NCBI GenBank assembly: GCA_041937175.2
Contig: CP166615.1
Location: forward strand, 3,904,001-3,968,000
Direction: 5' to 3'
DNA: 64,000 nucleotides
From: Limnothrix sp. BL-A-16
GTDB lineage: Bacteria > Cyanobacteriota > Cyanobacteriia > CACIAM-69d
The translations under genes and the position numbers were made by a program. This document shows, in pieces, positions 8,491 to 28,398 of the stretch. The notes below the pieces were generated by a model. The model was not told where the DNA came from. It saw only the letters and a list, made by a program, of their open reading frames with translations, and searched no databases. The first letter of the stretch is position 1. Each line of letters begins with the position of its first letter.

Positions 8491-8696
8491 GAACGGAACC
8501 GAAAAGCAGGATGGGGCTGCCTCCATTGCTCAACGTTACAACCCGGCTGTGATTGTTACGACCCGTGACCCGGGCTGTTACGATGCGACTTAGCGGCGCT
8601 GGCAATGGAGTTCAGGTCAATTTGTGGGCATTCCCAGGGACTGGATTCATCCGCCCTGAGCCATTGAGGGTCGCTGGCTGTTGCGCTGTTTTGGAA

Positions 8697-14094: not shown

Positions 14095-14112
14095 ATCGGC
14101 GATGAATGCCAG

Positions 14113-14185
14113 CGCGCCCTGGAGGACTCGAACCCCCGACATCAGGTTTTGGAGACCTGCGTTCTACCGACTGAACTAAGAGCGC
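14113..14185 (-). tRNA. trnW: tRNA-Trp(CCA)
   Basis: Reverse complement GCGCTCTTAGTTCAGTCGGTAGAACGCAGGTCTCCAAAACCTGATGTCGGGGGTTCGAGTCCTCCAGGGCGCG, 73 nt, anticodon CCA. Canonical position between rplS and secE. Confidence 0.97.
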
Positions 14186-14646: not shown

Positions 14647-14833
14647 GACTGGTTCAAAAAACCACAAGCATACATCTTAGCTGTTGAACAGTCATTTCGT
14701 CTAGATTGGTTTGGCTTTTTTCCGATCGAGCCTGGATCGTCCCCCTCGTTCGATCGGCCCTCTACACTGGGGAAACATATAAGATGCGGGACAATTCTCC
14801 TCGGTGGCACTGGGGCGGAGGGCTGAACAAACC

Positions 14834-16177
14834 ATGGAGCAAATCCTGAAAAGATCACAGCAACTGGTGCAAGGACTGCGATCGCCCTTAGGGTCGGCCA
14901 TGGTCTTGTCATTTGTGGTGCACTTGGCGGCCTTGCCTCTGCTGGCGGACTGGAATCCGGCCTCACCCCCCGAGGACGAGCGCAAAGTGGCCCTGCTGGA
15001 GCTGACCCCCGAGGAACTGCAAGAGCTGCCGGCCTTTGCCCGGGAAGCGGCTGCCCAGCCCCAAAATCCAGCCGAATTGACCAATCCCCCCAACTCCAAT
15101 TCCGGGAGCGCCAATGATCTGTTCAATCGCTTAGGCTTGGGCAGTTCGTCACCGTCCGTTGGTCGCGGAGCCGCCGCCGATCCCTTCAATACCTTTGGTG
15201 GCGCAGCGGGTAACCAGGGGCGTTCCAACAGTCGCATGGGCGATCGGGCCGCGAACCGGTTTGAGAATAATCCCAATAACAACCCCTATAACAACTCCTA
15301 CATCAATCCCTATAACGATTACGCTGGCTGGGATCAGTTCCAAAATCCGCCTCCCCGTCCCAATGGTGGCGATCGCGGTCGTCGGGGCCGCCAGCCCAAC
15401 GGTCAGTCCCGATCGCCCGTTGCAGCAACCCCCGCCACCGCCGCCGATCGCCTGGCCAAATCTACCGCCAACGTTGCGATCGCCCAATTTCGAGATCAAT
15501 GGCGAATGGCGGCCGGTCTTCAGTCCCTGGCCAGCGGTCTGAACCCGGAACCCACCGATCGCCCCGGTAACTACACCTTTAACCCCAACCTGGTGAGCAG
15601 CAACGCCACCCAAGGCCGCCTGAGCCAACTGGCCGATTGGGTGAAACGGGTCAACGATCTCCCCATGCGCAACGCAGATGGATCCCTGTTGCCGGGTACG
15701 GGCAAAGAATTAAACGGCGTTTTCCGCGACATGCTCACCGTCGGAGACTCCATTCAAAAGAAAGACACCCCGATCCAATGGCGCAAATTTGCTGACCTGC
15801 GGGCTTGCACCACCCTGAGCGCCAACCCGCCCCAACCGATCCGCTTGGTTGTCTTGGTGGGCGATCGGGGACTGGTGGCCCCCGGTTTGAACCCCGTGCG
15901 GTTGGTGCAAAGCTCCGGCTACTCAGCCTTGGATGACGAGGCGATCGCCTTTTTGACCCAACAGCTCACCGGCAAAAAACTCTCCGATCGCCCGGGTTAT
16001 CTGATCCATATCTACACCCTGACCTATCCCCCTTGCAGCAGCGCCAATCCCAGTCCAACCCCTAGCCCCACATCCAGTCCAACCCCTAGCCCTACACCCA
16101 GCCCCACACCCACCACCAACGAAAGCCCCTCATCACCCCCCAGCGAAACTCCGGCTCCCACCGGCCCATCGCCCTAG
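14834..16177 (+). CDS. TonB-like membrane-anchored Pro-rich protein
   Basis: N-terminal TM with SxxxH (SFVVH), low-complexity linker, TonB_C-like LVQSSGYSALDDEA, and a PS/PT tail. Confidence 0.7.
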   Translation: MEQILKRSQQLVQGLRSPLGSAMVLSFVVHLAALPLLADWNPASPPEDERKVALLELTPEELQELPAFAREAAAQPQNPAELTNPPNSNSGSANDLFNRLGLGSSSPSVGRGAAADPFNTFGGAAGNQGRSNSRMGDRAANRFENNPNNNPYNNSYINPYNDYAGWDQFQNPPPRPNGGDRGRRGRQPNGQSRSPVAATPATAADRLAKSTANVAIAQFRDQWRMAAGLQSLASGLNPEPTDRPGNYTFNPNLVSSNATQGRLSQLADWVKRVNDLPMRNADGSLLPGTGKELNGVFRDMLTVGDSIQKKDTPIQWRKFADLRACTTLSANPPQPIRLVVLVGDRGLVAPGLNPVRLVQSSGYSALDDEAIAFLTQQLTGKKLSDRPGYLIHIYTLTYPPCSSANPSPTPSPTSSPTPSPTPSPTPTTNESPSSPPSETPAPTGPSP

Positions 16178-16356
16178 CATTGGCAACGGCCACCCTTTCG
16201 CCATCCCTGTTTGTCCTCCGATTGATCGAGTACGTTCTAGCGAAAGTAATCGAAAAAACCGGTTGCCCCCAGCGATCGCCCCGCGCCAGAGTCAGCCGAC
16301 TGGGTAAAATCAACCCACCTCCCTACTCAGGATTTTGCGAGAACTCTGAAATCGTA

Positions 16357-17286
16357 ATGGCAACCAGCATTTTTCAATTCAGACAAAAAGATCGCCGTCC
16401 CTGGCTGCGGGTCATTCTGCAACTGCGCGGCTCCGTTGTACCCACCATTGCGCCCCGTGTGCTGTTTTGTGGAACCTTTGCCGCAGTTGTGAGTTGGTTA
16501 CATGCCCTGAAAGTTCCCGTTGCCCAACCGGGCTGGGCGAATTTAATTCCCAGCGTGGTGCTGGGGTTGCTATTGGTTTTCCGAACCAATACGGCCTATG
16601 AGCGGTTTTGGGAAGGGCGCAAACTTTGGGGCGGAATTGTGAACACGTCCCGTAACCTGGGGCGACAAATCTGGGTGGCAATTGACGAATCTACGCCAGA
16701 AGTTCGGGAACAAAAAATTTCAGCCCTGAATCTAATTGCTGCCTTTGGCATTGCCACCAAGCAACATTTACGGGGGGCATCCATAACTGAAGCGGTTGCT
16801 GATTTGGTGGAGCCGAGTGTGCTGGCTAATTTGCAAACGACTAACCATGTACCCCTCGATTTATCAGTACGAATTGCCGCTTTTCTAGAGGAGCAGCGCG
16901 ATCGCGGTAACCTCAATCCGTATCAACTGGCTTCCATGCACCGTCTGCTTGATGTGCTAGTGGATTCCTTGGGAGGCTGCGAGCGAATTTTACGAACGCC
17001 CATGCCCTTTGCCTATGCCATCCACCTGCGGCAATTGCTATTAATCTACTGCCTGCTTTTGCCCTTTGAATTGGTAGCTAAAGTGGGCTGGTGGACAGGA
17101 TTACTGGTTGCCATTATCTCCTTCACTCTGTTTGGAATTGAAGAGATTGGCGAAGAAATCGAAAATCCCTTTGGCACGGATCCAAACGATTTGCCGCTAG
17201 ATGCCATTTGCAACACCGTTCGCCAAAATATGCAAGATTTGAGTGAAATCGAACCCCGCGCGGTCGATGTGCGATCGTTGCCCTGA
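16357..17286 (+). CDS. bestrophin family (YneE-like) channel
   Basis: LLVFRTNTAYERFWEGRKLWG, CERILRTPMP and EIENPFGTDPNDLPLD. Confidence 0.95.
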   Translation: MATSIFQFRQKDRRPWLRVILQLRGSVVPTIAPRVLFCGTFAAVVSWLHALKVPVAQPGWANLIPSVVLGLLLVFRTNTAYERFWEGRKLWGGIVNTSRNLGRQIWVAIDESTPEVREQKISALNLIAAFGIATKQHLRGASITEAVADLVEPSVLANLQTTNHVPLDLSVRIAAFLEEQRDRGNLNPYQLASMHRLLDVLVDSLGGCERILRTPMPFAYAIHLRQLLLIYCLLLPFELVAKVGWWTGLLVAIISFTLFGIEEIGEEIENPFGTDPNDLPLDAICNTVRQNMQDLSEIEPRAVDVRSLP

Positions 17287-17298
17287 CCCTCCAATCGT

Positions 17299-17364
17299 CT
17301 TGTAGTGCAGGTTTCAACCTGCACCATCCTGCGCTCCGGTGCGAGCTAAAGCTCACACTACAAG
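17299..17364. repeat. inverted doublet of GTAG-type REP hairpins
   Basis: CTTGTAGTGCAGGT-TTCA-ACCTGCAC followed by the inverted copy GTGCGAGC-TAAA-GCTCACACTACAAG. Confidence 0.75.
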
Positions 17365-17440
17365 CGTTGTGCGGCCGTAGCTATAATTGTCATGGTGCTT
17401 TCTGCGTTCACCTTTTCTCATTTACTTTTTGACTCACGCC

Positions 17441-19426
17441 ATGACTCAGCAACCGACCTACGGCCCACACAATCCCCATCCCCTGTCGCAATTGCGGACG
17501 GAGTTGGTGTGGGAAGGGAAGTATGACGAGTATGGCAACCGGCGGGAGGTGGACATTGCGGGCTGCGCGATGCCGATGCAAAAAATTGAGAGCATTGATG
17601 AGCCACGGCGAGAAGCAGAAGCCAAGAAGCAATTGACACTTTTTGAACAACAAAATCAGCGGCAAGATGATTTTCGAAATCGGCTGATTTGGGGCGATAA
17701 CAAGCTAGTAATGGCTTCGTTGTTGAAGGAATTTAAGGGCAAGGTAGATTTGATTTATATTGATCCGCCGTTTGATGTGGGCGCGGATTTTACGATGAAA
17801 ATGCCTATTGGGGAAGATGAAGATGCATTCACCAAAGAACAATCCGCTTTAGAAATGGTTGCTTATCGCGACACTTGGGGAAAAGGAACAGATTCATATC
17901 TTCATATGATGTATGAACGCCTAGTTCTCATGAAGGAACTCCTGAGTGATTCGGGTAGTATTTATGTTCATTGTGATTGGCGAGTTAATAGCTTTTTAAG
18001 AAGTATTTTGGATGAAATTTTTGGATTTGATAGCTTTAGAAATCAAATTGTATGGCATTATCCGGGACGAGAAATGCATATATCAAGTAAGTTTAATGCA
18101 AAACATGACACTATTCTTTTCTACGCGAAAGGTGAAAATACGAAGGTAAGAATGGAACAAATTGCTATTCCTTATGACAAGGAAGAAAGGCTTAAAACGC
18201 TCAGAAGAAAGGTATATAAAGATGAAGATGGTAGGGACTGGGTATGGGAAACTAGAGGACAGGCTACAGGGCAAGAACCATACAAACGTTATGTAGAGGA
18301 GATAATATCTCAGGGAAAGCCGATCAGTGATGTCTGGTCAGACTTGCAGTTCTTAAGAGGTAATCATCCTGAGCGAACTGACTATGCCACTCAAAAGCCA
18401 AATGCTCTAATTGATCGCATCATCAAAGCCTCATCAAATGAAGGTGATCTTGTTGCAGATTTCTTTTGTGGATCGGGAACTACCGGAGCCGTTGCCGAGC
18501 GATTGGGTCGTCGTTGGTTAATGGCAGACCTGGGGCGATTTGCCATCCACACCACCCGCAAACGGATGATTGAACTCCAGCGGAAACTGCACAGCGACGG
18601 GCAACCCTACCGCGCCTTTGATGTCTATAACCTCGGGCGCTACGAGCGACAATGGTGGCAAAAAGATCGCCTGCAGGGAGCCGACGAAGAACATCGCCGC
18701 GTCGTGCTGGAATTTTTCAAAGCCGAGCCTTTGACTAACACCCCTTCACCCCTGCTCCATGGACGCAAAGCCGGAGCCTTTTGCCATGTGGACGGGATCG
18801 ACTCCATGTTCACCCGCGACGAAGCCAAACAGGTCGCTCAAGCCGTGAAAGCAGCGGGCGGGCGCGAGTGTTTTTGCCTCGCCTGGGAATTTGAAATGGA
18901 CTTGCACTTGCTGACCAATGCCCTAGCCCAAGAACTAGGTGTGAAGCTCAAAATGGTGCAAATCCCCCGCGAAATCATGGAGAAAAATCGCACCGCACCG
19001 CCCCCATTCTTAGAAGTTGCCGTCCTGGCCGCCGAACCCGTCTACCAAACTGCGACAACTGAAGCCGGAACCACAAATAAAAAGGCTCGTAGTGCTGACT
19101 TCAGTCAGCGCACCGTTGATATCAAACTCACCCAATTTTTGCCCTCCCTCGCCGAAGTTCCTACTAAAGAATTAGATGCAATTCGAGAGCGAGCGATCAA
19201 AAGTGGTTTTGACTTTATTGATTTTTGGGCCGTGGATTTTAATTGGCAACCCGGCAAGGCCTTTAACCACGATTGGCAAGACTACCGCACTCGCAAAGAT
19301 CGCAGCCTAAAAACCGTCAGCGATGCTAGCTATATCTATCCTGCACCTGGCAAATATGTTGCCTGCGTCAAAGTAGTAGATACCTTCGGCTGCGACACCT
19401 CAATCACGATCGATATCGAAGTGTAA
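17441..19426 (+). CDS. mod: type III-like R-M DNA methyltransferase (Mod, beta class)
   Basis: Motif IV IYIDPPF precedes motif I DFFCGSGTT; also TQKP, IWGDN and a long C-terminal extension. TATAAT at 17382. Confidence 0.9.
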   Translation: MTQQPTYGPHNPHPLSQLRTELVWEGKYDEYGNRREVDIAGCAMPMQKIESIDEPRREAEAKKQLTLFEQQNQRQDDFRNRLIWGDNKLVMASLLKEFKGKVDLIYIDPPFDVGADFTMKMPIGEDEDAFTKEQSALEMVAYRDTWGKGTDSYLHMMYERLVLMKELLSDSGSIYVHCDWRVNSFLRSILDEIFGFDSFRNQIVWHYPGREMHISSKFNAKHDTILFYAKGENTKVRMEQIAIPYDKEERLKTLRRKVYKDEDGRDWVWETRGQATGQEPYKRYVEEIISQGKPISDVWSDLQFLRGNHPERTDYATQKPNALIDRIIKASSNEGDLVADFFCGSGTTGAVAERLGRRWLMADLGRFAIHTTRKRMIELQRKLHSDGQPYRAFDVYNLGRYERQWWQKDRLQGADEEHRRVVLEFFKAEPLTNTPSPLLHGRKAGAFCHVDGIDSMFTRDEAKQVAQAVKAAGGRECFCLAWEFEMDLHLLTNALAQELGVKLKMVQIPREIMEKNRTAPPPFLEVAVLAAEPVYQTATTEAGTTNKKARSADFSQRTVDIKLTQFLPSLAEVPTKELDAIRERAIKSGFDFIDFWAVDFNWQPGKAFNHDWQDYRTRKDRSLKTVSDASYIYPAPGKYVACVKVVDTFGCDTSITIDIEV

Positions 19427-19428
19427 CG

Positions 19429-19845
19429 ATGCCAGCTAAGGACATCTATCACGACTGGGTAAAAGCATCGCTCATCCAAGCAGGGTGGACTGTTTCCCAT
19501 GATCCCCTCTCAATCCGAGTTGGCAAAATTGGCATTCATGTTGATTTGGGGCTAGAAAATCTAATTGGGGCTGAAAAAGCACAGCGAAAAATAGCGATCG
19601 AAATCAAAGGATTTATGAATGTTTCTAAAATCACAGATTTCTACGCTGCTTTTGGACAATACCTCTGCTATAAGGTTGCCCTAGCTCGTGAAGATCCCGA
19701 TCGCACCCTCTATCTAGCTGTACCCGCACCGATTTATCACACATTTTTTAAAGAGATTTTGATTCAAGATGTGTTGAATGAATATCCTATAAAAATGCTC
19801 ATCTACAACTTGTCTAGCCAGGAGATTCAGTCATGGATCGACTAA
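19429..19845 (+). CDS. xisH: XisH family protein
   Basis: MPAKDIYHDWVK...GWTVSHDP...DLG.E...IAIEIKGF...GQYLCY...RTLYLAVP. Confidence 0.93.
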   Translation: MPAKDIYHDWVKASLIQAGWTVSHDPLSIRVGKIGIHVDLGLENLIGAEKAQRKIAIEIKGFMNVSKITDFYAAFGQYLCYKVALAREDPDRTLYLAVPAPIYHTFFKEILIQDVLNEYPIKMLIYNLSSQEIQSWID

Positions 19846-20165
19846 ATCACTATCGTCATTGCATTCGCGCCTTTCTCGATCGCTACTCGCAATTTTGGCA
19901 AGAAAATGGCGTTGAGAATCAAATCATCATTGATTCTGAACATGATCACTACTTGCTGTTGAAGGCTGGATGGGTTGGCGATCGCAGAATTTACTACCCC
20001 GTTTTTCACTTTGATATTAAAGATGAAAAAATTTGGGTTCAAGAAAATACAACTGACGTAGAACTTGACAAAGACCTTGAAGCAATGGGCATCTCTAAAC
20101 AAGAAATTGTTGTGGGTTTTCACCACCCTCTAATGCGTGAGCATTCTGAGTTTGCCACGGCTTAA
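19833..20165 (+). CDS. xisI: XisI family protein
   Basis: MDRLNHYR...D.EHDHYLLL..GW...HFDIKDEKIWVQ.N.T...GISKQEIVVGFH; overlaps the xisH stop. Confidence 0.93.
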   Translation: MDRLNHYRHCIRAFLDRYSQFWQENGVENQIIIDSEHDHYLLLKAGWVGDRRIYYPVFHFDIKDEKIWVQENTTDVELDKDLEAMGISKQEIVVGFHHPLMREHSEFATA

Positions 20166-20205
20166 TCTCCTCGCCTAGTTGCCTTTTAGCCGCTTCACTA
20201 CACCC

Positions 20206-23200
20206 ATGGCCACTCTAAACCTTGCGTTGCTCGAACCGTTGTTTGCTCCTTGGCAAGAACCGAATGCTCACCGTGTTCGGGTTAATAAACTAGGAGATTC
20301 GGCCGCCGTGCAACAGGGCCGCCGACCTTCTCCGATCGAGGTGGTGAACAGCCTGCGATCGGCGGTGCGGGAATGGCGAGAAGCGTTTTACATCGGAGCC
20401 AGCGACACCAGCCGCTATTTGCTGAACCATTGGTTTAACCGCGCCCACCGACAAACCACGGCAGCCGGAGAGGACTTCGAGTTTCGCTACTACTTTTGCC
20501 AGCGCGAGGCGATCGAAACTCTGATTTACCTCAAAGAGGTGCGGCAGATCGAATGTCTGTCCCAAATCATTGCCGAGTTTGGTGGCTCGAATGCTGAACT
20601 CCAAGCCCTAGGGATTAAGGAGGAGGAAGATGCCTGGAGTCGCTATGCCTTTAAGCTGGCAACTGGTGCAGGCAAAACTAAAGTGATGAGCCTCTGCATG
20701 GTTTGGAGCTATTTCCATGCCCTGCGGGAGTCCGATTCGGAAATGGCGCGGCATTTTGTGGTAATTGCGCCGAACTTAACGGTCTATGAACGGCTCAAGG
20801 AAGACTTTGGCAATGGGCGGGTATTTGATGCTGATCCATTGATTCCGCCCGAATGGAGAGGAGATTGGAACTTGTCCGTGGTGCTGCAAGATGAGGCCAG
20901 CGGCGCAGCCACGGGGGGCACACTTTATCTAACAAACATCCATCGTCTTTACGATTCAGCCAAACGCACCAAAAAAGCGGCCGCCGATACCTATGACTGG
21001 ATGGGGCCTGCGGTGTCTAAAACGAAGGCGCTGGACAATGGAGCGGCCCTGCGCGATCGAATCATCACCCATCGGCGAGTGATGGTGCTGAATGATGAGG
21101 CGCACCATGTGTGGGACTCGGGTTCGGCATGGAATGAAGCAATTCGTTGGCTGCACGAAACCCTTGTGGCCCGCAGCGGTTGCTCCTTGGTGGCGCAATT
21201 GGATTTTTCAGCAACTCCCAAGGACAACAAGGGTCAACTGTTTAAGCACATTATCTGTGATACGCCCTTGGGAGAAGCGGTGGACGCAGGTATCGTCAAA
21301 ACACCGCTAATCGGGGCTGCCAGCCAAAACTTACAAGAGCAACCTGATGATAATGCGGCCTATCGCTGGGAACGGCATTTATTGTTGGGCTATGAACGCT
21401 GGAAAGCTAGCAGAGCAGAATGGGAGCCTAGCGGGAAAAAACCACTGCTGTTTGTCATGTGTGAAGACACGGAAGCGGCTGATCAAATTACGCAACGCTT
21501 CAACACTGATCCTCTATTTGAGCAACTAAATGGCAAAACGATTAACCTACACACCAACCTAAAGGGCAAGCTCAAGAAAGTGGGGCGAGGCAAAGAAGCT
21601 CGCCATGAGTTTGTCGAAGATGAAAAGGCAATTAGCGATGAAGACCTGAAGGCATTACGCCAACTAAGTCGTGAGCTAGATAGCAACACCAGCCCCTATT
21701 TCTGCATTGTGTCGGTGTTGATGTTGCGAGAAGGGTGGGACGTGCGGAATGTGACAACGATCGTGCCGCTGCGATCCTACAGTTCAAAAGCCAATATTCT
21801 GCCGGAGCAAACCCTAGGGCGTGGTTTACGCCGTATGACTCCGCCGGGCCAGGCGAATGAGTTAGTGACAGTGGTTGAACATCCCGCCTTTGCTAGCCTT
21901 TACCAGCAGGAATTGGCTCAAGAAGGGCTGCCATTAGAAATTGTGGAACTTGATCGGGTTCCTAAAACAACAATCTCAATTTTTCCTGATCCATCTCATA
22001 AGGATCTTGAAGCCCTAGAGATTCCAATTCCATCGCTGTTAGCGGGCTTTCGGATTGTGCCAAAGCTCGAGGGACTAACTATTCAGGACGTGAAAAAAGC
22101 CTTCAAGCCCTATCAGCCTCTACCCTTAAATCAATCATCAAGTCTAAGCATAATTCAATATGAAGGACGACATCTTTTTACAGGTGAAATCGTAGAAAAA
22201 ACGGAACTCAATCTTCCACTGCTTGCCTCAGGAGTTGGAGCAGTCTCCTATTATGTCAAGCAATTAGAAACTATCTGTAAGTTACGAGGATTGCATCAGC
22301 TTATAGCTCCTCTAATTCAGACTTTTTTAGAAGAAATTCTTTTTGCTCAAAAAGCAACATTGTTTGACCCTCAACTGGTGAGCCGCTTGGCTGATTCTGA
22401 TGTGGGTGAACACTTGCGGGCGGTGTTTGTACCTCTGATCCGCAGTCGCACCACGACGATGGAGGAGCGGCTGATGGTTGAGCCACCAAAGTTGTTAAAG
22501 CACTGGAAACCGTTTCAGGTGACCTTGAGCGATCGCCGTCCAGCTTTGCCAGCAGCGAAAACGCTGTTTAATCTGGTGACTTGCAATCGTGAACTCGAAG
22601 TGGCGGTGGCAAAGTTTTGCGATCGCGCTCCTGATGTGGTGGCCTTTGCTAAAAATGCGGGTTCTCAGGCCTTGCGAATCGATTATTTGGCCCAAGGCGA
22701 TCGGCTGGCGTTCTACACACCAGATTTCTTTGTGCGGACAAAGGATGGCGGTTGCTATTTGGTGGAAACCAAGGGGCGCGAGGATCGGGATGTGCCGTTG
22801 AAGGCTAGGGCTGCGATCGCTTGGTGTCAGGCGGCTTCTGGGGTGAATGATGGGGTGATGACTGAGGTTTTCACTACGAGCAGAAAGTGGCAGTACCTTT
22901 ACATTCCGCAAGGGGTGTTTGAGCGAATGGCAGGTGACTCTGTGGCAGAACTAGCGCGGGCTTGTGAACCTGCCTTGCAAAATCTGCTGCAATCTGAAGA
23001 GTTTCAGGACTTACCGCTGTTTGCCAACTTAGGTCAGTCTGATGAGGAAATATCCCGAACGGATGACATTGTTGATCCAAGTATTTTGAACCAGTTACCG
23101 AACCGTTATCGCTGGGCAGCCGATCAAGCGATCATGCTCTATCAATTTTTTGAAAACAAAATAGGAATGAGCTATGCACCAGTCTTTACACCTTTATTGG

Positions 23201-23664
23201 GGTCAATTGACGAAGTAGCTAAAGGATTATTGACTCGACGGCTTCAGTCGGTAATTCCTGCAAATGTCAATGATCAAAAAGCTTGGTTTTCACCTGATTT
23301 GACCGTCATAGATCGAAAGGCTGAAGGATATTATCGTAAGCTTGCCCAAAACCTCAAACGCACTTTAGTGTTTAATAATGGAGTTTCATTAATTGGGCTA
23401 CTTCGGTCATGCTTAGACTATGCTCTCAATGATCCAGTTTTAATTGGAGGGGTGTTTGAATCTCTCAGGTCTACATTACGATTCCAGGGCAATCGAGCGT
23501 TGCTAGAAACCATCACTCGGATCAACCAATTTCGAAACACCTACATCGCTCACCAAGAGTCAGAATTAACTGACCGAGACTTAGCGAAACAAGAACTACA
23601 AGTTTGGATTGAGGCACTGCACAGAATTGCAACTGATAGAAGTGATTCGTTGCTTAAGGATTGA
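20206..23664 (+). CDS. res: type III-like restriction subunit (SF2 helicase, PD-(D/E)xK nuclease, extra C-terminal HEPN-like domain)
   Basis: QREAIE, LATGAGKT, NDEAHH, FSATP, MLREGWDV, EQTLGRGLR; nuclease YTPDF...LVETKG; C-terminal FRNTYIAH. Confidence 0.88.
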   Translation: MATLNLALLEPLFAPWQEPNAHRVRVNKLGDSAAVQQGRRPSPIEVVNSLRSAVREWREAFYIGASDTSRYLLNHWFNRAHRQTTAAGEDFEFRYYFCQREAIETLIYLKEVRQIECLSQIIAEFGGSNAELQALGIKEEEDAWSRYAFKLATGAGKTKVMSLCMVWSYFHALRESDSEMARHFVVIAPNLTVYERLKEDFGNGRVFDADPLIPPEWRGDWNLSVVLQDEASGAATGGTLYLTNIHRLYDSAKRTKKAAADTYDWMGPAVSKTKALDNGAALRDRIITHRRVMVLNDEAHHVWDSGSAWNEAIRWLHETLVARSGCSLVAQLDFSATPKDNKGQLFKHIICDTPLGEAVDAGIVKTPLIGAASQNLQEQPDDNAAYRWERHLLLGYERWKASRAEWEPSGKKPLLFVMCEDTEAADQITQRFNTDPLFEQLNGKTINLHTNLKGKLKKVGRGKEARHEFVEDEKAISDEDLKALRQLSRELDSNTSPYFCIVSVLMLREGWDVRNVTTIVPLRSYSSKANILPEQTLGRGLRRMTPPGQANELVTVVEHPAFASLYQQELAQEGLPLEIVELDRVPKTTISIFPDPSHKDLEALEIPIPSLLAGFRIVPKLEGLTIQDVKKAFKPYQPLPLNQSSSLSIIQYEGRHLFTGEIVEKTELNLPLLASGVGAVSYYVKQLETICKLRGLHQLIAPLIQTFLEEILFAQKATLFDPQLVSRLADSDVGEHLRAVFVPLIRSRTTTMEERLMVEPPKLLKHWKPFQVTLSDRRPALPAAKTLFNLVTCNRELEVAVAKFCDRAPDVVAFAKNAGSQALRIDYLAQGDRLAFYTPDFFVRTKDGGCYLVETKGREDRDVPLKARAAIAWCQAASGVNDGVMTEVFTTSRKWQYLYIPQGVFERMAGDSVAELARACEPALQNLLQSEEFQDLPLFANLGQSDEEISRTDDIVDPSILNQLPNRYRWAADQAIMLYQFFENKIGMSYAPVFTPLLGSIDEVAKGLLTRRLQSVIPANVNDQKAWFSPDLTVIDRKAEGYYRKLAQNLKRTLVFNNGVSLIGLLRSCLDYALNDPVLIGGVFESLRSTLRFQGNRALLETITRINQFRNTYIAHQESELTDRDLAKQELQVWIEALHRIATDRSDSLLKD

Positions 23665-23672
23665 GAAATTTA

Positions 23673-24260
23673 ATGATCATAGAGACTAAGTGGCTCGATC
23701 GCCTGGCCCTTTGGCTGCCGGGGACTTTTGAAAATCGGGAACAGGCCCTAGCGGATCCCACTTGGTATGTGGGTGTGCGACTGTGGCATCGATCGATCGG
23801 GGTCTTTGGGCCCGGCCACTTGGGGATTTATGCGGAACAGGCCAGCGCCCCCACCTTCGCCAAAATCTATCGCCCCAGGGTGTTTCAGATTTCCCCCACC
23901 TCCGATCCTGATTTCCCGCTGGCGGTGGCCTACTTTGCCCTGCGACAGCCGGAGCGGTGGCGAGGTGCGGGTTTAGATCCCGCTATTTTGGAAACCCTGA
24001 CCTTAGCGGACTTGGAGCCGCTGCCCGGTTGTCTGTTGCCGATGGCGGTGTTGGCAGAGGGGGCCGGTTTTCGGGCCCAGCTTCCGCCCGATCGCCGTTG
24101 TTGTTTCCAGGCCGATGGGCAATTGCGCCAGGTGAGTTTGGGGTTTGAGGTGCGATCGGGCGAATTTCTCAGCTACGACAAGGGCATTGATCCCGACACG
24201 GGCAAACCAATTTGGGGGGCAATCATGGGCCCATTTCGCTATCGGCGCGTTGGCGATTAA
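23673..24260 (+). CDS. CpcT/CpeT family bilin lyase paralog
   Basis: GTFENREQA, YAEQA, YRPRV and SYDKGIDPDTGKPIWGA..GPFRY. Confidence 0.85.
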   Translation: MIIETKWLDRLALWLPGTFENREQALADPTWYVGVRLWHRSIGVFGPGHLGIYAEQASAPTFAKIYRPRVFQISPTSDPDFPLAVAYFALRQPERWRGAGLDPAILETLTLADLEPLPGCLLPMAVLAEGAGFRAQLPPDRRCCFQADGQLRQVSLGFEVRSGEFLSYDKGIDPDTGKPIWGAIMGPFRYRRVGD

Positions 24261-24402
24261 GATGCGATCGCGGGGAGCCACCGTACGGCCATCCGCTGTG
24301 GGCAGTGGCAAGCCTTCCCCTCGCCCATGTTGGATCGATTTTGTTCGCTCCTATAACCATTCATTCCTTTCAATCCCTACGAAATCCCCGATTAACCACA
24401 CC

Positions 24403-25017
24403 ATGACCCAAGTGTCTGAAGCGATCGCCCCCGCTGCTGATTTGGTGACCCTTGGCCGTTGGATGGCCGCCGACTTCAGCAACCAAGCCCAAGCCTTTGA
24501 AAATCCGCCCTTTTTTGCCCATATTCGGGTCTGTATGCGGCCCCTGCCGATCGCCCTGCTAGGCGGCATCAGTTTCTATGTGGAACAGGCCTATGATTAC
24601 GCCCTCAACCAGCCCTATCGTGTGCGGGTGTTGAAGTTGATTGAGGTGGATGGGCAGATCCAAATTGAAAACTATGCCGTTGCCGATGAGCAGGAATTTT
24701 TTGGTGCTTCTCGACAGCCCGATCGCCTGCAAGCGCTGACGGCTGATCGCCTGGAGCGGCTTTGTCATTGCAATTTTTTGGTGAGCCGGACGGGGCAAAC
24801 ATTCACGGGCCAGGTGGAACCCGGCAAGGCCTGCATGGTCACGCGCAAGGGCAAGGAAACCTACTTGGATAGTCAGTTTGAAATCACAGCCGATCGATTT
24901 GTGAGCTGGGATCGGGGCCGCGACCCGGAAACCGATGAACATGTGTGGGGTGCGGTGGCCGGGCCCTTTGACTTTGTGAAGGTGGCCAGCTTTGCCGATG
25001 AGGTCGTGGCTCCCTAG
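24403..25017 (+). CDS. cpcT: phycocyanobilin lyase CpcT
   Basis: LGRWMAADFSNQAQAFENPPFFAHIRVCMRPLP and DRGRDPETDEHVWG. Confidence 0.92.
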   Translation: MTQVSEAIAPAADLVTLGRWMAADFSNQAQAFENPPFFAHIRVCMRPLPIALLGGISFYVEQAYDYALNQPYRVRVLKLIEVDGQIQIENYAVADEQEFFGASRQPDRLQALTADRLERLCHCNFLVSRTGQTFTGQVEPGKACMVTRKGKETYLDSQFEITADRFVSWDRGRDPETDEHVWGAVAGPFDFVKVASFADEVVAP

Positions 25018-25207
25018 GGCGATGTGGCGGCGGGCGGGGAAGGGCGATCGATCGCCACGGTCGGCTTTCCCTGCGCCAAAATGATTGCCATCAGTTCCGC
25101 AGTGCTGGGTGGCCTCTCGGGCCTGAGCGGGCTGTCTTGACCGTTTTCAGTGCGCGGCTCCCCCGTTTTTGGGGTGACCGCTCGACTTCGATCAATCTCG
25201 ATAATTA

Positions 25208-26308
25208 ATGTCCATCCGATCACTCCTGCGCTGGTTTTTATTGGGGTTGCTGTTGCCGCTGGCGTTTTTGAACGGCTGGATGTTGCTTCAGGTCTTCAAT
25301 TACTTTCAGTCCCTGCTGTCTGCCTTTGTGGTGGCCACGCTGGTGTCTTTTCTGTTGGACTATCCCGTGCGGTGGCTGGAAGCGCAGGGGAAACGCTGGC
25401 GCGTGCGGCGGGAATTTGCGGTGTTGGCGATCGTCCTGTTGACCTTGGGGATTGTGGGTCTGTTGGGGCTAACGCTGGCTCCGGTGCTCTATGACCAATT
25501 TGCCGCTTTTGCCAATGGGTTGCCCGGTTGGGTGGCATCGAGTCGGCAACAGCTTGAAAACCTGTCCAGTTGGGCCATTGCCAAGCGGCTCCCGATCGAC
25601 CTTCAGCAGTTGGGAACCCAGGCGATCGCCCAATTCTCAGCCCAAATTCAAAACCTAACCACCCAATTGGTGAGCCTGTTGGTGCAAATGGCTGGACGGG
25701 CCTTTGATGCGCTGATTGCGATGGTGTTGGCGGTTTATTTGCTATTGCGGGGCGAGCCATTTTGGGATGGCTTTTTTAGTTGGTTGCCGCCCGATCGACG
25801 GGAGCAGGTTCGCCAATGTTTTCGCCAAAATTTCCAAAACTACTATGCCGGCCAAGCGGCGCTGGCCACCACGATCGGGGTGGCCATGGTGTTGCTTTTT
25901 CTGGTGCTGCAAGTGCCGTTTGGGTTGCTGTTTGGCCTGGGTATTGGGGTCATGACGCTGGTGCCCTTCGGAGCCGGAATCAGCATTGTGGTGGTGAGCT
26001 TGCTGTTGGCGGTCAAGAGTTTTTGGTTGGGGCTACAGGTGCTGTTGCTGGCCTTTTTGGTGGATCAAATTATTGAAAATACGGTTGCTCCGCGCCTGTT
26101 GGGGCAATTTACGGGGCTGAACCCAGTTTGGGTGTTGTTGTCGCTGTTGGCGGGGGCCAAGGTAGGTGGCTTGTTGGGGGTGGTGTTGGCGGTTCCGTTG
26201 GCGGGAACGATCAAAAGCGCGATCGAACTGTGGCGATCGCCCAAGCATGGCTGGACTTTGGCAACCGATTCCGCCTTGCCAACCACTACCACTCGACCCG
26301 ATCGCTGA
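25208..26308 (+). CDS. AI-2E (PerM/UPF0118) family transporter
   Basis: FLLDYPV and PRLLGQFTGLNPVWVLLSLLAGAKVGGLLGVVLAVPLA. Confidence 0.92.
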   Translation: MSIRSLLRWFLLGLLLPLAFLNGWMLLQVFNYFQSLLSAFVVATLVSFLLDYPVRWLEAQGKRWRVRREFAVLAIVLLTLGIVGLLGLTLAPVLYDQFAAFANGLPGWVASSRQQLENLSSWAIAKRLPIDLQQLGTQAIAQFSAQIQNLTTQLVSLLVQMAGRAFDALIAMVLAVYLLLRGEPFWDGFFSWLPPDRREQVRQCFRQNFQNYYAGQAALATTIGVAMVLLFLVLQVPFGLLFGLGIGVMTLVPFGAGISIVVVSLLLAVKSFWLGLQVLLLAFLVDQIIENTVAPRLLGQFTGLNPVWVLLSLLAGAKVGGLLGVVLAVPLAGTIKSAIELWRSPKHGWTLATDSALPTTTTRPDR

Positions 26309-26395
26309 GGGTCGGGCCGCAGGATTGTGGAAAGCTAAAGCGCTGAGTATCTACAGGTTCCTAGGCTGCTTCAATCTAGGGCCTAGCCTGTTCCT

Positions 26396-26428
26396 CAATT
26401 CTCAACTCTCAACTCTCAATCCTCAAAT
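26396..26428. repeat. short heptamer tandem repeat (CTCAACT-like, STRR type)
   Basis: ctcaatt ctcaact ctcaact ctcaatc ctcaa at a convergent gene junction. Confidence 0.6.
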
Positions 26429-27600
26429 CGCTGAACAGCGAGCACCGCATTTTGGCCGCCAAACCCAAAGGCGAAACAAAGGGTTCGATCGACATGTCGG
26501 GCGATCGGGGTTTGTAGCCAAAAACCGGCAAATTCTGGATCCTGCAACCCCACCGTGGGCGGCAACTGGCCGGACTCGATCGCCAAAAGACAAAACGCAA
26601 CGCCCAAGGCACTGGAAGCCCCCAACGTATGGCCAGTGGCTCCTTTGGTGGAACTCACGGGCGGTTGTTGGGGAAAAAGATCTTGAATTAAATTGGCTTC
26701 CTGGGCATCATTCAGCTTGGTGGCCGTGCCGTGGGCGTGGATATAGTCCACCTGTTCCGGCTGCCAGCCGCTACGTTCCAGGGCCAAACGCACCGCAACC
26801 CGAGCCGATCGCCCCGTTGGATCCGGCGCACTGAGGTGATAAGCATCGGTGCTGAAGCCGGCCCCTAAAATTTCTCCATAGATTTTGGCTCCGCGCGATC
26901 GGGCCAGGTCGGCCGCTTCCAACACCAGCAGAGCCGCCCCTTCTCCCAACGCCAGCCCCTCGCGCGATCGGTCAAAGGGATAGGAACCCTTGGCCGCCAG
27001 GGCCCCCATTTGGGCAAACCCCGCCAAAGTCAGGGGCGTGATTGGGGCTTCCACGGCTCCCGCCAAGACCTGATCGCACCAGCCTTCTCGAATTAAGTCC
27101 GCCCCCCGGGCGATCGCACTGATCCCGGTCGTGCAGGCGGTCATCGGAGCCAGCAGTGGGCCCCCTGCCCCCCATTGCTGGGCGATTCGCAGCGCTGGGC
27201 CGTGGGGCAAGTGCCCTAACCATTGCTCATTTAAGGGGCGCTGACCGGCCGCGTATTGCTCCAAAACGCCCTGATAGCTGCGGCTGGATCCCACTGAAAC
27301 TCCCAATTGCCGATCGGGGTCACCCGGCCTGGCCCAAGAGTCAGATCGGAGATCAACGCCGATCACATCAGCCCAGGCTGCTGCACTGGTGCGATCGATC
27401 AGGTGCGTCAAGTCGGCGGGCTGGGCATGAGTTTGGGACTTCACGCGGGAATCCATCAGGGCGATCGGACGAGCCGGAATCGCCGCAAAAGGTTGCTGCT
27501 GCTGAATCGCCGATTGACCGGCCAAGATCGATCGCCAGGTTGATGCGCGATCGCCCAAGGCCGACATCAGCCCAATTCCCGTTACCACCACCCGCCGCAC
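26416..27600 (-). CDS. beta-ketoacyl-ACP synthase (FabF-like paralog)
   Basis: RRVVVTGIG, TACTTG (catalytic Cys), HAHGTAT, KGATGHTLGAS and FGFGGQN. Confidence 0.9.
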   Translation of the reverse strand: MRRVVVTGIGLMSALGDRASTWRSILAGQSAIQQQQPFAAIPARPIALMDSRVKSQTHAQPADLTHLIDRTSAAAWADVIGVDLRSDSWARPGDPDRQLGVSVGSSRSYQGVLEQYAAGQRPLNEQWLGHLPHGPALRIAQQWGAGGPLLAPMTACTTGISAIARGADLIREGWCDQVLAGAVEAPITPLTLAGFAQMGALAAKGSYPFDRSREGLALGEGAALLVLEAADLARSRGAKIYGEILGAGFSTDAYHLSAPDPTGRSARVAVRLALERSGWQPEQVDYIHAHGTATKLNDAQEANLIQDLFPQQPPVSSTKGATGHTLGASSALGVAFCLLAIESGQLPPTVGLQDPEFAGFWLQTPIARHVDRTLCFAFGFGGQNAVLAVQRFED

Positions 27601-27618
27601 AGTGAACCGAGGAAGGCG

Positions 27619-28398
27619 TTAGGGCGTGGTTTTCAAATTTTCCAGACCCGTCGTGACGCTGGCTTTCTCAATTCGATCGCCCTGTTGCACCTGGTCGATC
27701 GTCTCCATGCCCTTGGTCACATAGCCAAACACCGCATAGCTACCGTCCAGCGGGGTTAACTCCGCCAGCGCAAAGTAAAACTGCGACGAGGCGGAATCCG
27801 GCGACATCGATCGCGCCATGGCCACCGCGCCCCGCTTGTGGGTTAAAACCGGCGTTTCTGCAATACCCAAATCGGGGAACGTCGCGCCATAGACCGGCTG
27901 CGCTTGACCCTTGGGCTTAATTTCTAGGGGAATGGTGCGCTCGCGGCCCGTTTTGGGATCCGTGAAACCGCTCATTCCCAACTCCGTGATCGGAACCTTG
28001 GGATCCTTGCTGCGCGGGTCGCCCCCTTGCACCACAAAGGGCACCGGCTCCCGCACCACCCGGTGGAACATCAAGCCGTCATAGACCCCACGGTTCACCA
28101 AATCCACAAAATTTCCCGCCGTGATCGGGGCGTTGTTGCCGTCCACCTCAATCTCCACCGGTTGACCCTTAATGGTCATGGTCACGGTTGCTTTGCCGGT
28201 TAACTGGGGCAAACCGGCGGGCAACTGGGCCGGCGTGGCCGCAACCGACGGCGTGGGGCTGCTCACTTGACGGCTATCGGCCGGTTGACCCGCACAGCCC
28301 GCGATCGAAAAAACCAGCAATGCGGCAATGGGCGCTAGCCAGAGCTTCCGGAATGCGTTTTTGCAGGTTTTCATGCAAGTGGTTGCTAAATAGCTCAT
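27619..28398 (-). CDS. cyclophilin-type peptidyl-prolyl isomerase, lipoprotein
   Basis: Lipobox IAGC, APITAGNFVDLV, FHRVV, VQGGDP and SASSQFYF. Confidence 0.93.
   Translation of the reverse strand: MSYLATTCMKTCKNAFRKLWLAPIAALLVFSIAGCAGQPADSRQVSSPTPSVAATPAQLPAGLPQLTGKATVTMTIKGQPVEIEVDGNNAPITAGNFVDLVNRGVYDGLMFHRVVREPVPFVVQGGDPRSKDPKVPITELGMSGFTDPKTGRERTIPLEIKPKGQAQPVYGATFPDLGIAETPVLTHKRGAVAMARSMSPDSASSQFYFALAELTPLDGSYAVFGYVTKGMETIDQVQQGDRIEKASVTTGLENLKTTP

Follow-up and report, generated by a model that had tools for sequence, protein, structure and literature searches.

A xisH-xisI pair as a probably exchangeable cargo of a type III-like restriction-modification operon in Limnothrix

A block of four genes in Limnothrix sp. 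BL-A-16 raises the question of whether mod, xisH, xisI and res form one dedicated defence system or a restriction-modification (R-M) operon that carries xisH-xisI as an add-on. The window analysed is a 64,000-nt stretch of contig CP166615.1 (positions 3,904,001 to 3,968,000). The four genes are + strand open reading frames (ORFs) of the same orientation, listed at 17387-19426, 19429-19845, 19833-20165 and 20179-23664. The TTG codons at 17387 and 20179 are mechanical ORF starts. The in-frame ATG at 17441 is the likely start of mod because the matches to homologues and to the PADLOC model set in at residues 18-25 of the ORF from 17387; res starts at ATG 20206, with homologues aligning from residue 2-4. 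The genes are thus mod (17441-19426, 661 aa counted from ATG 17441), xisH (19429-19845, 138 aa), xisI (19833-20165, 110 aa) and res (20206-23664, 1152 aa). The tight packing described in the first-pass annotation is confirmed. Inspection of the junction letters places the mod stop TAA (19424-19426) 2 nt before the xisH ATG (19429); xisH, with its stop at 19843-19845, is overlapped over its last 13 nt by xisI, whose ATG (19833) lies within it; and 40 nt separate the xisI stop (20163-20165) from the res ATG (20206). This spacing suggests that the genes are co-transcribed, and a scan found no terminator-like sites between them. By Pfam, the block does lie between a bestrophin gene (Bestrophin_2, 16180-17286) and two CpeT/CpcT ORFs (23661-24260 and 24145-25017). 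Its GC content is 0.42-0.53 vs 0.56-0.61 to either side, and none of 80 surveyed loci shares the bestrophin or CpeT flanks; both count as support for a mobile island.

Upstream, the TATAAT hexamer noted earlier is present at 17383-17388 (+ strand), 53 nt 5' of the likely mod start, where it was found by inspection. None of the 6 sites of a sigma-70 consensus scan (8.2 expected by chance) is a full promoter on the + strand, and the hexamer is not called as one. A nested hairpin (inverted repeat I2, 17299-17364, + strand; outer arms CTTGTAGTG...CACTACAAG) follows the bestrophin stop and precedes the promoter region of mod. Its RNA fold (-32 kcal/mol, z -3.35) is equalled by 2/200 shuffles, and its core 20-mer occurs once in the window; possibly it is a terminator for the bestrophin gene or a REP/MITE-like element. 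A second, long-range mRNA stem is predicted on the + strand (inverted repeat I3, 24 nt, 79% complementary), with 20137-20160 pairing to 20248-20271 and enclosing the stop codon of xisI, the start codon of res and the 40 nt between them. The fold of 20125-20285 (-44.1 kcal/mol, z -2.80) is as good in 2 of 200 shuffles, and the predicted stem may couple translation of res to that of xisI.

Mod is predicted to be a type III-like, beta-class N6/N4 DNA methyltransferase. The earlier type III-like assignment is borne out by a full-length match to PADLOC MTase_III (PDLC03633, 6.3e-233, model positions 3-614 of 616), and the protein also matches Pfam N6_N4_Mtase (1.1e-46). DPPF (motif IV) stands ahead of FxGxG (motif I), in the translated strings IYIDPPF and FFCGSGTT. 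Orthologues of mod (54-88% identical) are found 5' of res in the surveyed loci. Res matches Pfam ResIII (8.1e-13) and Tn7_TnsA-like_N (2.7e-4) and, over part of its length, PADLOC REase_III (2.8e-25). Its SF2 helicase/ATPase has GKT and DEAH motifs and is joined by a TnsA-like PD-(D/E)xK nuclease (D840, E854, K856), the motifs of both being invariant columns in the homologue alignment; full-length homologues (53-88% identical) occur in many phyla. The locus thus resembles the type III systems EcoP15I and EcoP1I in its mod-then-res operon, its beta-class N6/N4 methyltransferase and a Res with SF2 helicase motifs and a C-terminal PD-(D/E)xK nuclease, and PADLOC type III models match both proteins. 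It differs in that Res is only marginal to the canonical model (PRK15483, 19 bits, cut-off 564) and nearer to, yet below threshold for, the NCBIfam BPTD_3080 family (272 bits, cut-off 800), has an extra 220-aa C-terminal domain, and belongs to loci whose mod-res junction is often filled with cargo.

This extra domain (about residues 931-1152) is all-alpha and conserved, with an invariant R1110-N-x4-H1116. In the structural model, R-N-x4-H straddles the boundary between the penultimate helix and the loop after it, the position given for the HEPN motif in Anantharaman et al. 2013. That source also describes HEPN domains fused to R-M nucleases and helicases (DUF4145, Abi2/Swt1), which the all-alpha C-terminus on a helicase-nuclease resembles; unlike these, the Res domain gave no significant match, by profile or by fold, to HEPN families or structures. 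The domain is probably HEPN-like, so that the motif and its place relative to the helices agree with the HEPN proposed earlier for Res, to which profile and fold searches add nothing, and a Res-fused RNase stands as a motif-level suggestion.

XisH (PF08814, 2.6e-49) and XisI (PF08869, 1.7e-38) are recognised by their Pfam families and have relatives in the PDB at E-values of 1e-20 to 1e-35 (XisH, 2inb and 2okf, at 3e-35; XisI, 3d7q, 2nlv, 2nvm and 2nwv). These PDB structures are of XisH and XisI separately, none as a complex. XisH appears to be a PD-(D/E)xK nuclease-fold protein with an intact catalytic triad: D39, E58 and K60 are invariant in 14/14 aligned copies, in support of the restriction-endonuclease-like fold claimed earlier. 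Neither PADLOC nor NCBIfam has a model that matches XisH or XisI, and hence there is no recorded defence phenotype for either. Among the 80 loci, XisH occurs in 14, never alone (0 loci) and always with XisI; XisI occurs without XisH in 6. This asymmetry is toxin-antitoxin-like, and XisI is, as far as sequence can tell, an obligate, co-evolving partner of XisH. The pair shares further features with type II toxin-antitoxin systems (VapBC, HigBA, MNT-HEPN, DUF4258-DUF2283): the genes are small and overlapping, patchy, mobile and multi-copy, and they share their slot with bona fide toxin-antitoxin pairs. It differs in that the putative toxin is a PD-(D/E)xK DNase-fold protein. The nuclease gene comes first and its partner second, the less common arrangement among toxin-antitoxin pairs, which counts against a toxin-antitoxin reading. 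No fused forms of XisH or XisI were found, which is weak evidence against binding between the two.

The survey sample comprised 80 loci encoding Res relatives, many of them metagenome bins whose taxonomy and assembly may be wrong; the mod-res junction could be assessed in 67. The gap is occupied in 41/67 loci. The first-pass annotation had pointed to the neighbourhoods of Res homologues as the place where a four-gene system could fail, and this is largely what is found: 26 of the 42 non-cyanobacterial loci have mod and res abutting or overlapping (gap ≤48 nt), several sampled junctions having an ATGA in which the mod stop overlaps the res start, and in the other 16 the gap is filled by diverse cargo (PIN, Fic, RhuM, NYN, DUF3800, an ABC-type ATPase and unknowns). 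The R-M family is therefore conserved without xisHI. Cyanobacterial-type loci (n=25) have no empty junction; 14 contain xisH and xisI, 5 xisI alone and 6 other toxin-like genes. Res is interrupted in 10 of these 25 loci, so some islands are decaying and possibly little informative on function. Every xisH or xisI copy in the 80 loci lies directly 5' of res. Cargo is tightly coupled in the sampled junctions, the first gene starting from the mod stop and the last stop standing 3 nt before the res ATG. By Pfam, the cargo includes XisH/XisI, DUF4258-like+DUF2283, Uma2, HEPN, PIN, Fic, RhuM, NYN, DUF3800 and AAA_15/21; PADLOC names several of the genes SoFic, PDC-S03/S17, PDC-S05, PDC-M24A/B, HEC-09 and NsnB/AriA/GajA-like. 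The mod-res junction is a recurrent site of insertion and exchange for small cargo. Since the same spot in relatives holds so many different toxin-like or defence-like inserts, xisH-xisI is probably an exchangeable add-on and not a permanent member of a new system of four genes. Alternatively, 0/25 empty junctions and xisI in 19/25 could reflect a selected link to the R-M family, beyond hitchhiking.

Exchange shows in the identities. Pairwise identities of XisH and XisI rise together (r 0.94), whereas those of XisH and XisI vs Res are uncorrelated (r 0.07 and 0.12). In nucleotide comparisons, the flanks in mod and res vary together (Spearman 0.5-0.87) and xisH is uncorrelated with either (-0.09 to 0.07). 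In four loci (L013, L014, L016 and L018), Res is 94-97% identical and XisH merely 39-53%, so the cassette has been swapped, and each of these XisH types is found again, at 85-93% identity, beside a more distant Res. The xisHI types are thus exchanged between near-identical backgrounds independently of mod and res, including among the 14/25 cyanobacterial-type loci with both genes.

The pair is also embedded in type I R-M and DISARM-like operons. Eleven plasmid contexts were hand-picked, non-randomly, from 40 records with a match, and in 4/11 xisHI lies in or between genes of methyltransferase-bearing defence loci: hsdM-xisH-xisI-uma2-hsdS-hsdR; DUF1156-xisHI-Uma2-Swt1 HEPN; DUF1156-HigBA-xisHI-CopG/PIN-VapBC-helicase on pAQ6, in line with known toxin-antitoxin pairs; and xisHI between drmA and a methyltransferase gene. 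Such embedding has precedents. In the portions of the sources available, PrrC is placed within a type Ic R-M locus, EcoprrI (PMC12707154, PMC3710099), DarTG2 between hsdS and hsdR (PMC12255303), and 'guilt-by-embedding' candidates in Hma, BREX, DISARM and type I R-M (bioRxiv 10.1101/2024.01.29.577857); the available main text of the last names no XisH/XisI, Uma2, cyanobacteria or type III R-M. The Limnothrix locus is alike in having a small toxin-type module between R-M genes at an exchange hotspot, and several cargo genes of orthologous gaps match PADLOC embedded-candidate models. It is unlike them in its type III-like host operon, the mod-res site and the XisH/XisI cargo.

An integrated four-gene defence, in which Mod/Res would silence an XisH/XisI guard that is freed when phage blocks the restriction enzyme, as for PrrC, with the Res C-terminal RNase as a third layer, would account for the tightly coupled block, the invariable position 5' of res and the cargo in 25/25 cyanobacterial-type loci, and the PrrC and HEPN-R-M linkages (PMC3710099, PMC12707154, as far as these are accessible) offer precedent. 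It is nevertheless quite unlikely. Guard contact with Mod or Res is improbable because there is no co-variation. Near-identical Res proteins accompany divergent XisH, the same cassette sits in unrelated operons, the 26 cargo-free orthologous loci lack it altogether, and XisH, unlike PrrC, has a partner protein of its own. The proposal that XisHI acts as a toxin-antitoxin or guard pair therefore survives in its first half, as a toxin-antitoxin-like or defence module that fits the comparative data, and is unlikely in its second.

DNA rearrangement as in the Anabaena fdxN element, in which an endonuclease and a directionality factor would help the recombinase of another locus to excise the island or cassette or to move it, is about as unlikely. 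Genetic evidence said to come from Ramaswamy in 1997, which reportedly implicates XisH and XisI in fdxN-element excision and gave them their names, counts in its favour. The Limnothrix proteins are homologues of that pair (PF08814/PF08869; PDB 2okf, 2nvm; E 1e-38 to 1e-49) in the same overlapping order, and the cassette is evidently mobile. Plasmid xisHI is often near integrases and Tn7-like or IS genes, and a REP-associated tyrosine transposase-like gene occurs in the same gap of 4 loci. The Hwang 2014 model, as quoted in PMC4853749, points the same way, but the accessible part of that paper also reports xisHI in genomes without xisF. In the window, the earlier observation that no recombinase is nearby holds: none of the 54 ORFs scanned belongs to a recombinase (XisF-type or other), integrase or transposase family, and neither an interrupted host gene nor direct repeats flanking the island were seen. 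Here, unlike in the fdxN element, the pair is embedded among R-M genes and swapped as a cassette; rearrangement also leaves unexplained why XisH is never alone and why PIN, Fic, RhuM and other toxins use the same slot. The least probable reading makes xisH a free-standing, homing-type endonuclease gene, purely selfish and of no host benefit, whose product cuts cassette-free junctions 3' of methyltransferase genes, with repair copying the gene into them and xisI protecting or regulating it. A nuclease gene placed with sharp boundaries precisely between two conserved genes, its recurrence 3' of methyltransferase genes in different systems and its replacement independently of the flanks all suit homing. 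However, no shared target sequence is apparent among the insertion contexts, which differ in R-M type, and non-nuclease cargo uses the same slot. The 120-nt cassette flanks are no closer in pairs of the same vs different cassette type (84.4 vs 83.9% and 77.5 vs 74.7%), so no co-conversion tract is evident.

The reading preferred, with somewhat better than even confidence, is a type III-like R-M operon in which a swappable PD-(D/E)xK nuclease/inhibitor pair lies embedded as a toxin-antitoxin-like or defence cassette. The operon would have been acquired horizontally; Mod would methylate, and Res would combine a helicase, a PD-(D/E)xK nuclease and a probable HEPN-like domain. The xisH-xisI cassette would be self-contained and no subunit of the restriction enzyme, transcribed and translated along with the operon; its horizontal exchange would proceed independently of mod and res. 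XisH would be its toxic effector, which XisI would bind and inhibit as antitoxin. For its host, the cassette would either stabilise the island by addiction or provide a second, abortive-infection-type layer of anti-phage defence.

The locus is a type III-like restriction-modification (R-M) island in which an exchangeable xisH-xisI cassette is embedded. Mechanical ORF calling fills positions 17387-23664 of the window with four + strand ORFs, which belong, in order, to the Pfam families N6_N4_Mtase, XisH, XisI and ResIII: mod (17441-19426), xisH (19429-19845, 138 aa), xisI (19833-20165, 110 aa) and res (20206-23664, 1152 aa). As read in the sequence, the mod stop TAA (19424-19426) is followed by a 2-nt spacer and the xisH ATG at 19429; the xisI ATG at 19833 lies within xisH, giving a 13-nt overlap; and the xisI TAA (20163-20165) is separated by a 40-nt spacer from the res ATG at 20206, the point from which its homologues align. 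The likely start of mod is the in-frame ATG at 17441, with a TATAAT (17383-17388) 53 nt ahead. The mod and res genes have the same orientation and are separated here by the 0.78-kb xisHI cassette. The operon status is read from gene spacing alone, because the promoter consensus scan gave none on the + strand and the terminator scan gave no terminator-like site between the four genes.

The GC content of the block is 0.42-0.53, against 0.56-0.61 outside. It is bordered by a bestrophin gene on one side and two cpcT/cpeT paralogues on the other, and the adjacent bestrophin and CpeT ORFs are whole by Pfam. The remaining window is ordinary cyanobacterial chromosome that includes an rpl cluster, psbD/psbC and ycf4. 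Families of recombinases, integrases or transposases were absent from the 54 window ORFs scanned, the repeat search gave no convincing direct repeats bordering the island, and Rfam gave no family in 15000-26000. The sole tRNA, tRNA-Trp at 14112-14185, is away from the island border. The first-pass annotation had described four co-oriented, tightly packed genes between bestrophin and cpcT with no recombinase present; since ORFs, junctions, GC dip, flanks and the lack of recombinase families among the scanned ORFs all agree, that description is confirmed.

Two potential RNA structures lie at the edges of the coding units. A nested hairpin element (17299-17364) separates the bestrophin stop from the mod promoter region. 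It is an outer 9-bp inverted repeat around three small stems, with an RNA fold z of -3.35 and a core sequence unique within the window, and may represent a terminator or else a REP/MITE-like relic at the island border. A 24-nt imperfect inverted repeat (20137-20271, fold z -2.8) pairs the end of xisI with res codons 15-22, enclosing the xisI stop and the res start, and through this stem res translation may depend on ribosomes finishing xisI. The 40-nt spacer is special to this window; the xisI-res spacing is only 3 nt in most other loci. Downstream, two CpeT/CpcT-family ORFs occur in tandem (23661-24260 and 24145-25017). As mechanical ORFs they overlap each other, and the start of the first (TTG 23661) overlaps the res stop, the domain beginning only at residue 15. 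Upstream, a + strand ORF of 457 aa (14804-16177), a putative gene, has no Pfam family; the region has a GC of about 0.6, its GC skew is strongly negative, and several minus-strand ORFs overlap there.

Orthologous junctions were surveyed by an alignment-based scan of genome contigs, from which the best 80 of 260 confirmed Res loci (designated by L numbers) were taken. Thirteen were unscored: the Res N-terminus was off the contig in 6, the upstream sequence was too short in 5, and no mod was present within 9 kb in 2 (L022, L059). The 67 scored loci comprise 42 non-cyanobacterial loci (Res 53-71% identical) and 25 cyanobacterial-type loci (Res at least 72%). Within this best-80 set, the mod-res gap is 48 nt or less in 26 of the 42 non-cyanobacterial loci, and the mod stop overlaps the res start at several sampled cargo-free junctions. 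The other 16 carry inserts of 0.26-1.8 kb: DUF3800 (2 loci), DUF4258 plus DUF2442, Fic, RhuM, an AAA_15/21 ATPase, NYN, PIN plus a small upstream gene (3 loci), DUF6978 plus DUF1828, DUF3307 plus an unknown protein, and unknowns. None of the 25 cyanobacterial-type junctions among the best 80 is empty. Fourteen hold xisH plus xisI (two different pairs in L006), six of these with extra genes of Uma2, HEPN or REP-associated tyrosine-transposase-like type; five hold xisI without xisH; and six hold other cargo only (DUF4258-like plus DUF2283, Uma2, HEPN or PIN-like).

Whatever the cargo, its first gene begins at the mod stop or a few nt from it, and in many loci the last cargo stop is followed by 3 nt and then the res ATG. 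The comparative pattern marks the mod-res junction of this Res family as a cargo hotspot, filled in 41 of the 67 scored loci from the best 80 of 260. PADLOC matched non-Xis cargo to SoFic, PDC-S03/S17 (Uma2), PDC-S05 (RhuM), PDC-M24A/B, HEC-09, PDC-S09 and NsnB/AriA/GajA-like ATPases; by these matches several cargo genes belong to known or candidate defence families. Five gap genes have no Pfam, NCBIfam or PADLOC family: L043 1971-3414 (236 aa), L058 487-1476 (329 aa), L074 1361-2338 (325 aa), L054 2095-2541 (148 aa) and L034 3384-3680 (98 aa). Two of the five sit before a PIN gene, and all are candidate antitoxins or new defence genes by position.

The first-pass annotation had proposed the four genes as one layered defence system and called for a survey of mod-res gaps. 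The xisHI pair proves frequent in the gap of cyanobacterial-type loci, but the gap is empty in most non-cyanobacterial ones. With mod and res adjacent in 26 of 42 non-cyanobacterial loci, varied cargo elsewhere and xisHI exchanged independently, the four-gene "system" is, on comparative grounds, not a conserved unit.

The independent exchange is seen at both protein and DNA levels. Across the 14 xisHI-bearing backgrounds, a set that includes the noise-adding frameshifted res of L035, pairwise identities of XisH and XisI correlate with r 0.94, and those of Res with XisH and XisI with r of only 0.07 and 0.12. The Res N-terminal halves of L013, L014, L016 and L018 are 94-97% identical, their XisH proteins only 39-53%; for each of these XisH types, a copy with 85-93% identity accompanies a more divergent Res. 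In DNA, the last 120 nt of mod co-varies with the first 1.5 kb of res (Spearman 0.5-0.87), and xisH is uncorrelated with either flank (Spearman -0.09 to 0.07). The cassette boundaries are sharp at the DNA level, and the adjoining 120 nt gave no co-conversion signal. The cassette is thus exchanged independently of the backbone genes. An alternative in which the cyanobacterial clade inherited xisHI from its ancestor and the pair merely evolves fast was rejected, because XisH types recur on distant Res backgrounds and near-identical Res proteins accompany different types. The window's flanking genes are shared by none of the best 80 of 260 loci, so the island occupies different chromosomal places.

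Among the 67 scored loci, 50 have an uninterrupted res, 13 an interrupted one and 4 a res that runs past the contig end; the window res is intact. The 25 cyanobacterial-type loci account for 10 of the 13 interruptions, so either the islands often decay or the bins hold assembly errors. In two loci mod is lost and cargo kept: L059 has XisI, MNT and HEPN genes (7900-8961) beside a degraded res, and L022 an XisI fragment and Uma2 (8255-8976) with a res that may be interrupted. A REP-associated tyrosine-transposase-like gene (240-274 aa; NCBIfam NF047646 at 74-78 bits, cut-off 80) occurs in L005 (6987-7811), L007 (574-1314), L017 (7531-8253) and L020 (6738-7463), each copy starting at or near the mod stop and the four being mutually 69-73% identical. 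L005 and L007 retain DUF2283 and XisI but have neither presumed toxin (DUF4258-like gene or XisH). The final 8 codons of L001's DUF4258-like gene survive at the end of the transposase-like ORF there, which looks like a replacement of that toxin.

The backbone is assigned to the type III-like class from its two proteins. Type III R-M enzymes cleave in an ATP-dependent manner, need two inversely oriented asymmetric sites, and hemimethylate DNA. Mod matches the PADLOC model MTase_III PDLC03633 over its full length (6.3e-233) as well as Pfam N6_N4_Mtase, and DPPF precedes FxGxG in its translation, the beta-class order; by these features it is an independent beta-class N6-adenine/N4-cytosine methyltransferase of the type III kind. 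Res matches Pfam ResIII (8.1e-13), and its GKT, DEAH and D840/E854/K856 nuclease triad (D-ExK) are invariant in a 14-sequence alignment. Its PADLOC REase_III match (2.8e-25) covers model positions 11-355 of 871 only, and it scores 19 bits against the NCBIfam type III endonuclease model (cut-off 564) and 272 bits against BPTD_3080 (under the 800 cut-off). Because Res resembles canonical type III endonucleases only marginally and is sub-threshold for BPTD_3080, the system is named type III-like. Mod and res also share the adjacency in one operon that typifies type III systems, mod abutting res in 26 of 67 orthologous loci. Full-length Res relatives are many and highly conserved: other cyanobacteria have copies at 84% identity, and those of Planctomycetota, Acidobacteriota, Pseudomonadota and others are at 53-71%. 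A PADLOC search, proposed earlier as a check on the locus, thus matched mod and res to type III models but left xisH and xisI without any model; NCBIfam has none for them either.

The C-terminus of Res had been labelled HEPN. A search with residues 931-1152 against 1.84 billion representatives gave 244 matches with E no higher than 0.001. Of 24 scanned, 13 had a TnsA-like nuclease, 3 had ResIII and 8 had no informative family; those bearing the first two appear to be Res fragments, and none of the 24 offered a new domain context. An alignment of 40 sequences has R180 and H186 (Res R1110 and H1116) as sole invariant columns, with N181 at least 90% conserved. The resulting R-N-x4-H has the form of the HEPN Rx4-6H motif with a polar residue after R. 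An AlphaFold2 model of the domain is all-alpha (pLDDT 91.7); judged by secondary-structure position only, helix 166-185 ends at the motif, followed by a loop (186-193) and the last helix (194-213). Anantharaman et al. (2013; PMC3710099), in the passages on this family, place the motif at exactly that helix-end/loop position and describe repeated fusions of HEPN to R-M nucleases and helicases. Motif and helix position fit the label, but likeness to known HEPN families or structures was not found: the best Foldseek match in PDB was to haemoglobins (E 0.13) and in BFVD had E 0.4, a PDB profile search gave nothing relevant, and Pfam (E up to 5) over 40 domain members gave just HEPN_AbiU2 in one (E 0.053) and RnlA-toxin_DBD in one (E 0.13). 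The nearest Atlas clusters are unnamed, one having RnlA-toxin_DBD on 11% of its members. A HEPN identity is plausible, not demonstrated, with the balance leaning modestly in its favor, and the domain may act as an RNase.

XisH and XisI belong to the fdxN-factor families (Pfam 2.6e-49 and 1.7e-38). The linked large serine recombinase and interrupted gene of an fdxN-type element were not found: the 54 ORFs hold no recombinase and the flanking ORFs are whole. The pair has toxin-antitoxin-like features. Two small, co-directional, overlapping genes are the arrangement of all 15 XisH copies in the 14 loci. XisH, classed in the PD-(D/E)XK superfamily in PMC3424549, has D39, E58 and K60 invariant in 14 of 14 copies, and thus has the predicted enzymatic fold and conserved active site of a toxin. 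HMM searches across every six-frame ORF in the 80 loci detected XisH in 14, always with XisI; of the 20 loci with either gene among the best 80 of 260, XisI is alone in 6 and XisH in none, the pattern of co-evolving partners with orphan antitoxins and no solo toxin. The PDB holds XisH and XisI as separate structures only, with no co-crystal, and a search for fused or longer forms found none, which is weak evidence. XisH would then be toxic and XisI would neutralize it; XisHI may act in phage defence and the four genes may be co-transcribed.

A guard role had also been suggested for the pair, a role for which PrrC serves as the comparison. Embedding of an effector in an R-M operon is present here as in PrrC. 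Dependence of XisHI on the R-M proteins for silencing is, however, unlikely, because XisH comes with its own partner, and the cassette does not co-vary with Mod or Res and is present in unrelated operons. Of the proposal of a layered anti-phage module, the comparative pattern leaves XisHI as a credible, uncatalogued toxin-antitoxin-like or defence cargo, but not as part of a conserved four-gene unit.

The unrelated operons are found among plasmids. Forty plasmid records contain a match to XisH, and in almost all of them an overlapping XisI is annotated. In 4 of 11 contexts read, which were picked by hand and are non-random, xisHI lies in or between genes of methyltransferase-bearing defence loci: hsdM-xisH-xisI-uma2-hsdS-hsdR on Euhalothece pEu2; DUF1156-xisHI-Uma2 followed by a Swt1-family HEPN protein in Tolypothrix; DUF1156-HigBA-xisHI-CopG/PIN-VapBC-helicase on pAQ6 of PCC 7002; and xisHI between drmA and a methyltransferase gene in Oscillatoria PCC 7112. 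In the other 7 it is beside VapC/PIN pairs, integrases, Tn7-like genes or IS elements. The pAQ6 string (NC_010480.1, Picosynechococcus PCC 7002, 24955-27803) consists of four small pairs, HigB-HTH, XisH-XisI, CopG-PIN and VapBC, between a DUF1156 methyltransferase-type gene and a helicase-related gene, and is a second example of a cargo slot in a defence operon. The gene directly after xisI repeatedly encodes a Uma2-family PD-(D/E)xK protein, whether or not xisH is present (L001, L005, L007, L006, L018, L035, L042, L022; plasmids NZ_CP064887.1 and NZ_CP042328.1), which suggests a recurrent xisH-xisI-uma2 trio or an XisI-Uma2 relationship. Uma2 was considered a likely solo toxin by Makarova et al. 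(2009).

The consulted papers on XisH and XisI treat these proteins as fdxN excision factors or give plain gene counts. Hwang (2014), as quoted in PMC4853749, has them as "endonuclease and recombination directionality factor"; PMC4853749 also records xisHI in genomes without xisF. A table in PMC10756260 gives 4 xisH and 7 xisI in one genome and 22 and 32 in another. Among the listed titles of papers mentioning XisH and antitoxin, none treats XisHI as a toxin-antitoxin pair. Toxins lodged in R-M operons are an established phenomenon, with PrrC (PMC12707154, PMC3710099), DarTG2 (PMC12255303) and type I R-M-linked PIN toxins (PMC5499597) as examples. Hma, BREX, DISARM and type I R-M are the systems analysed in the guilt-by-embedding preprint (bioRxiv 10.1101/2024.01.29.577857); a term search of its main text gave no Uma2, cyanobacteria or type III R-M, and its supplements may list such genes. 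It is absent from the papers found to mention XisH and XisI.

Taken together, a broader reading is possible, though held only tentatively. XisH-XisI, for ~30 years "element excision factors", would be a widespread cyanobacterial toxin-antitoxin/abortive-infection family, an XisI-restrained PD-(D/E)xK DNase that colonizes the site immediately after methyltransferase genes in operons of type III-like, type I and DISARM-like kinds. The mod-res junction of this Res family would be a natural slot for cargo, and its unannotated occupants would be new defence genes, among them the 236-aa L043, 329-aa L058 and 325-aa L074 proteins. Should the pair be merely a selfish hitchhiker, this would be an ordinary R-M island of modest interest. 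If the broader reading is true, a large and abundant cyanobacterial family would move from developmental DNA excision to conflict and defence biology, and guilt-by-embedding would extend beyond type I R-M, BREX, DISARM and Hma to a type III-like family. The sharply defined slot, with its 41 filled loci, would then provide a ready list of candidate defence or toxin genes, several of them family-less.
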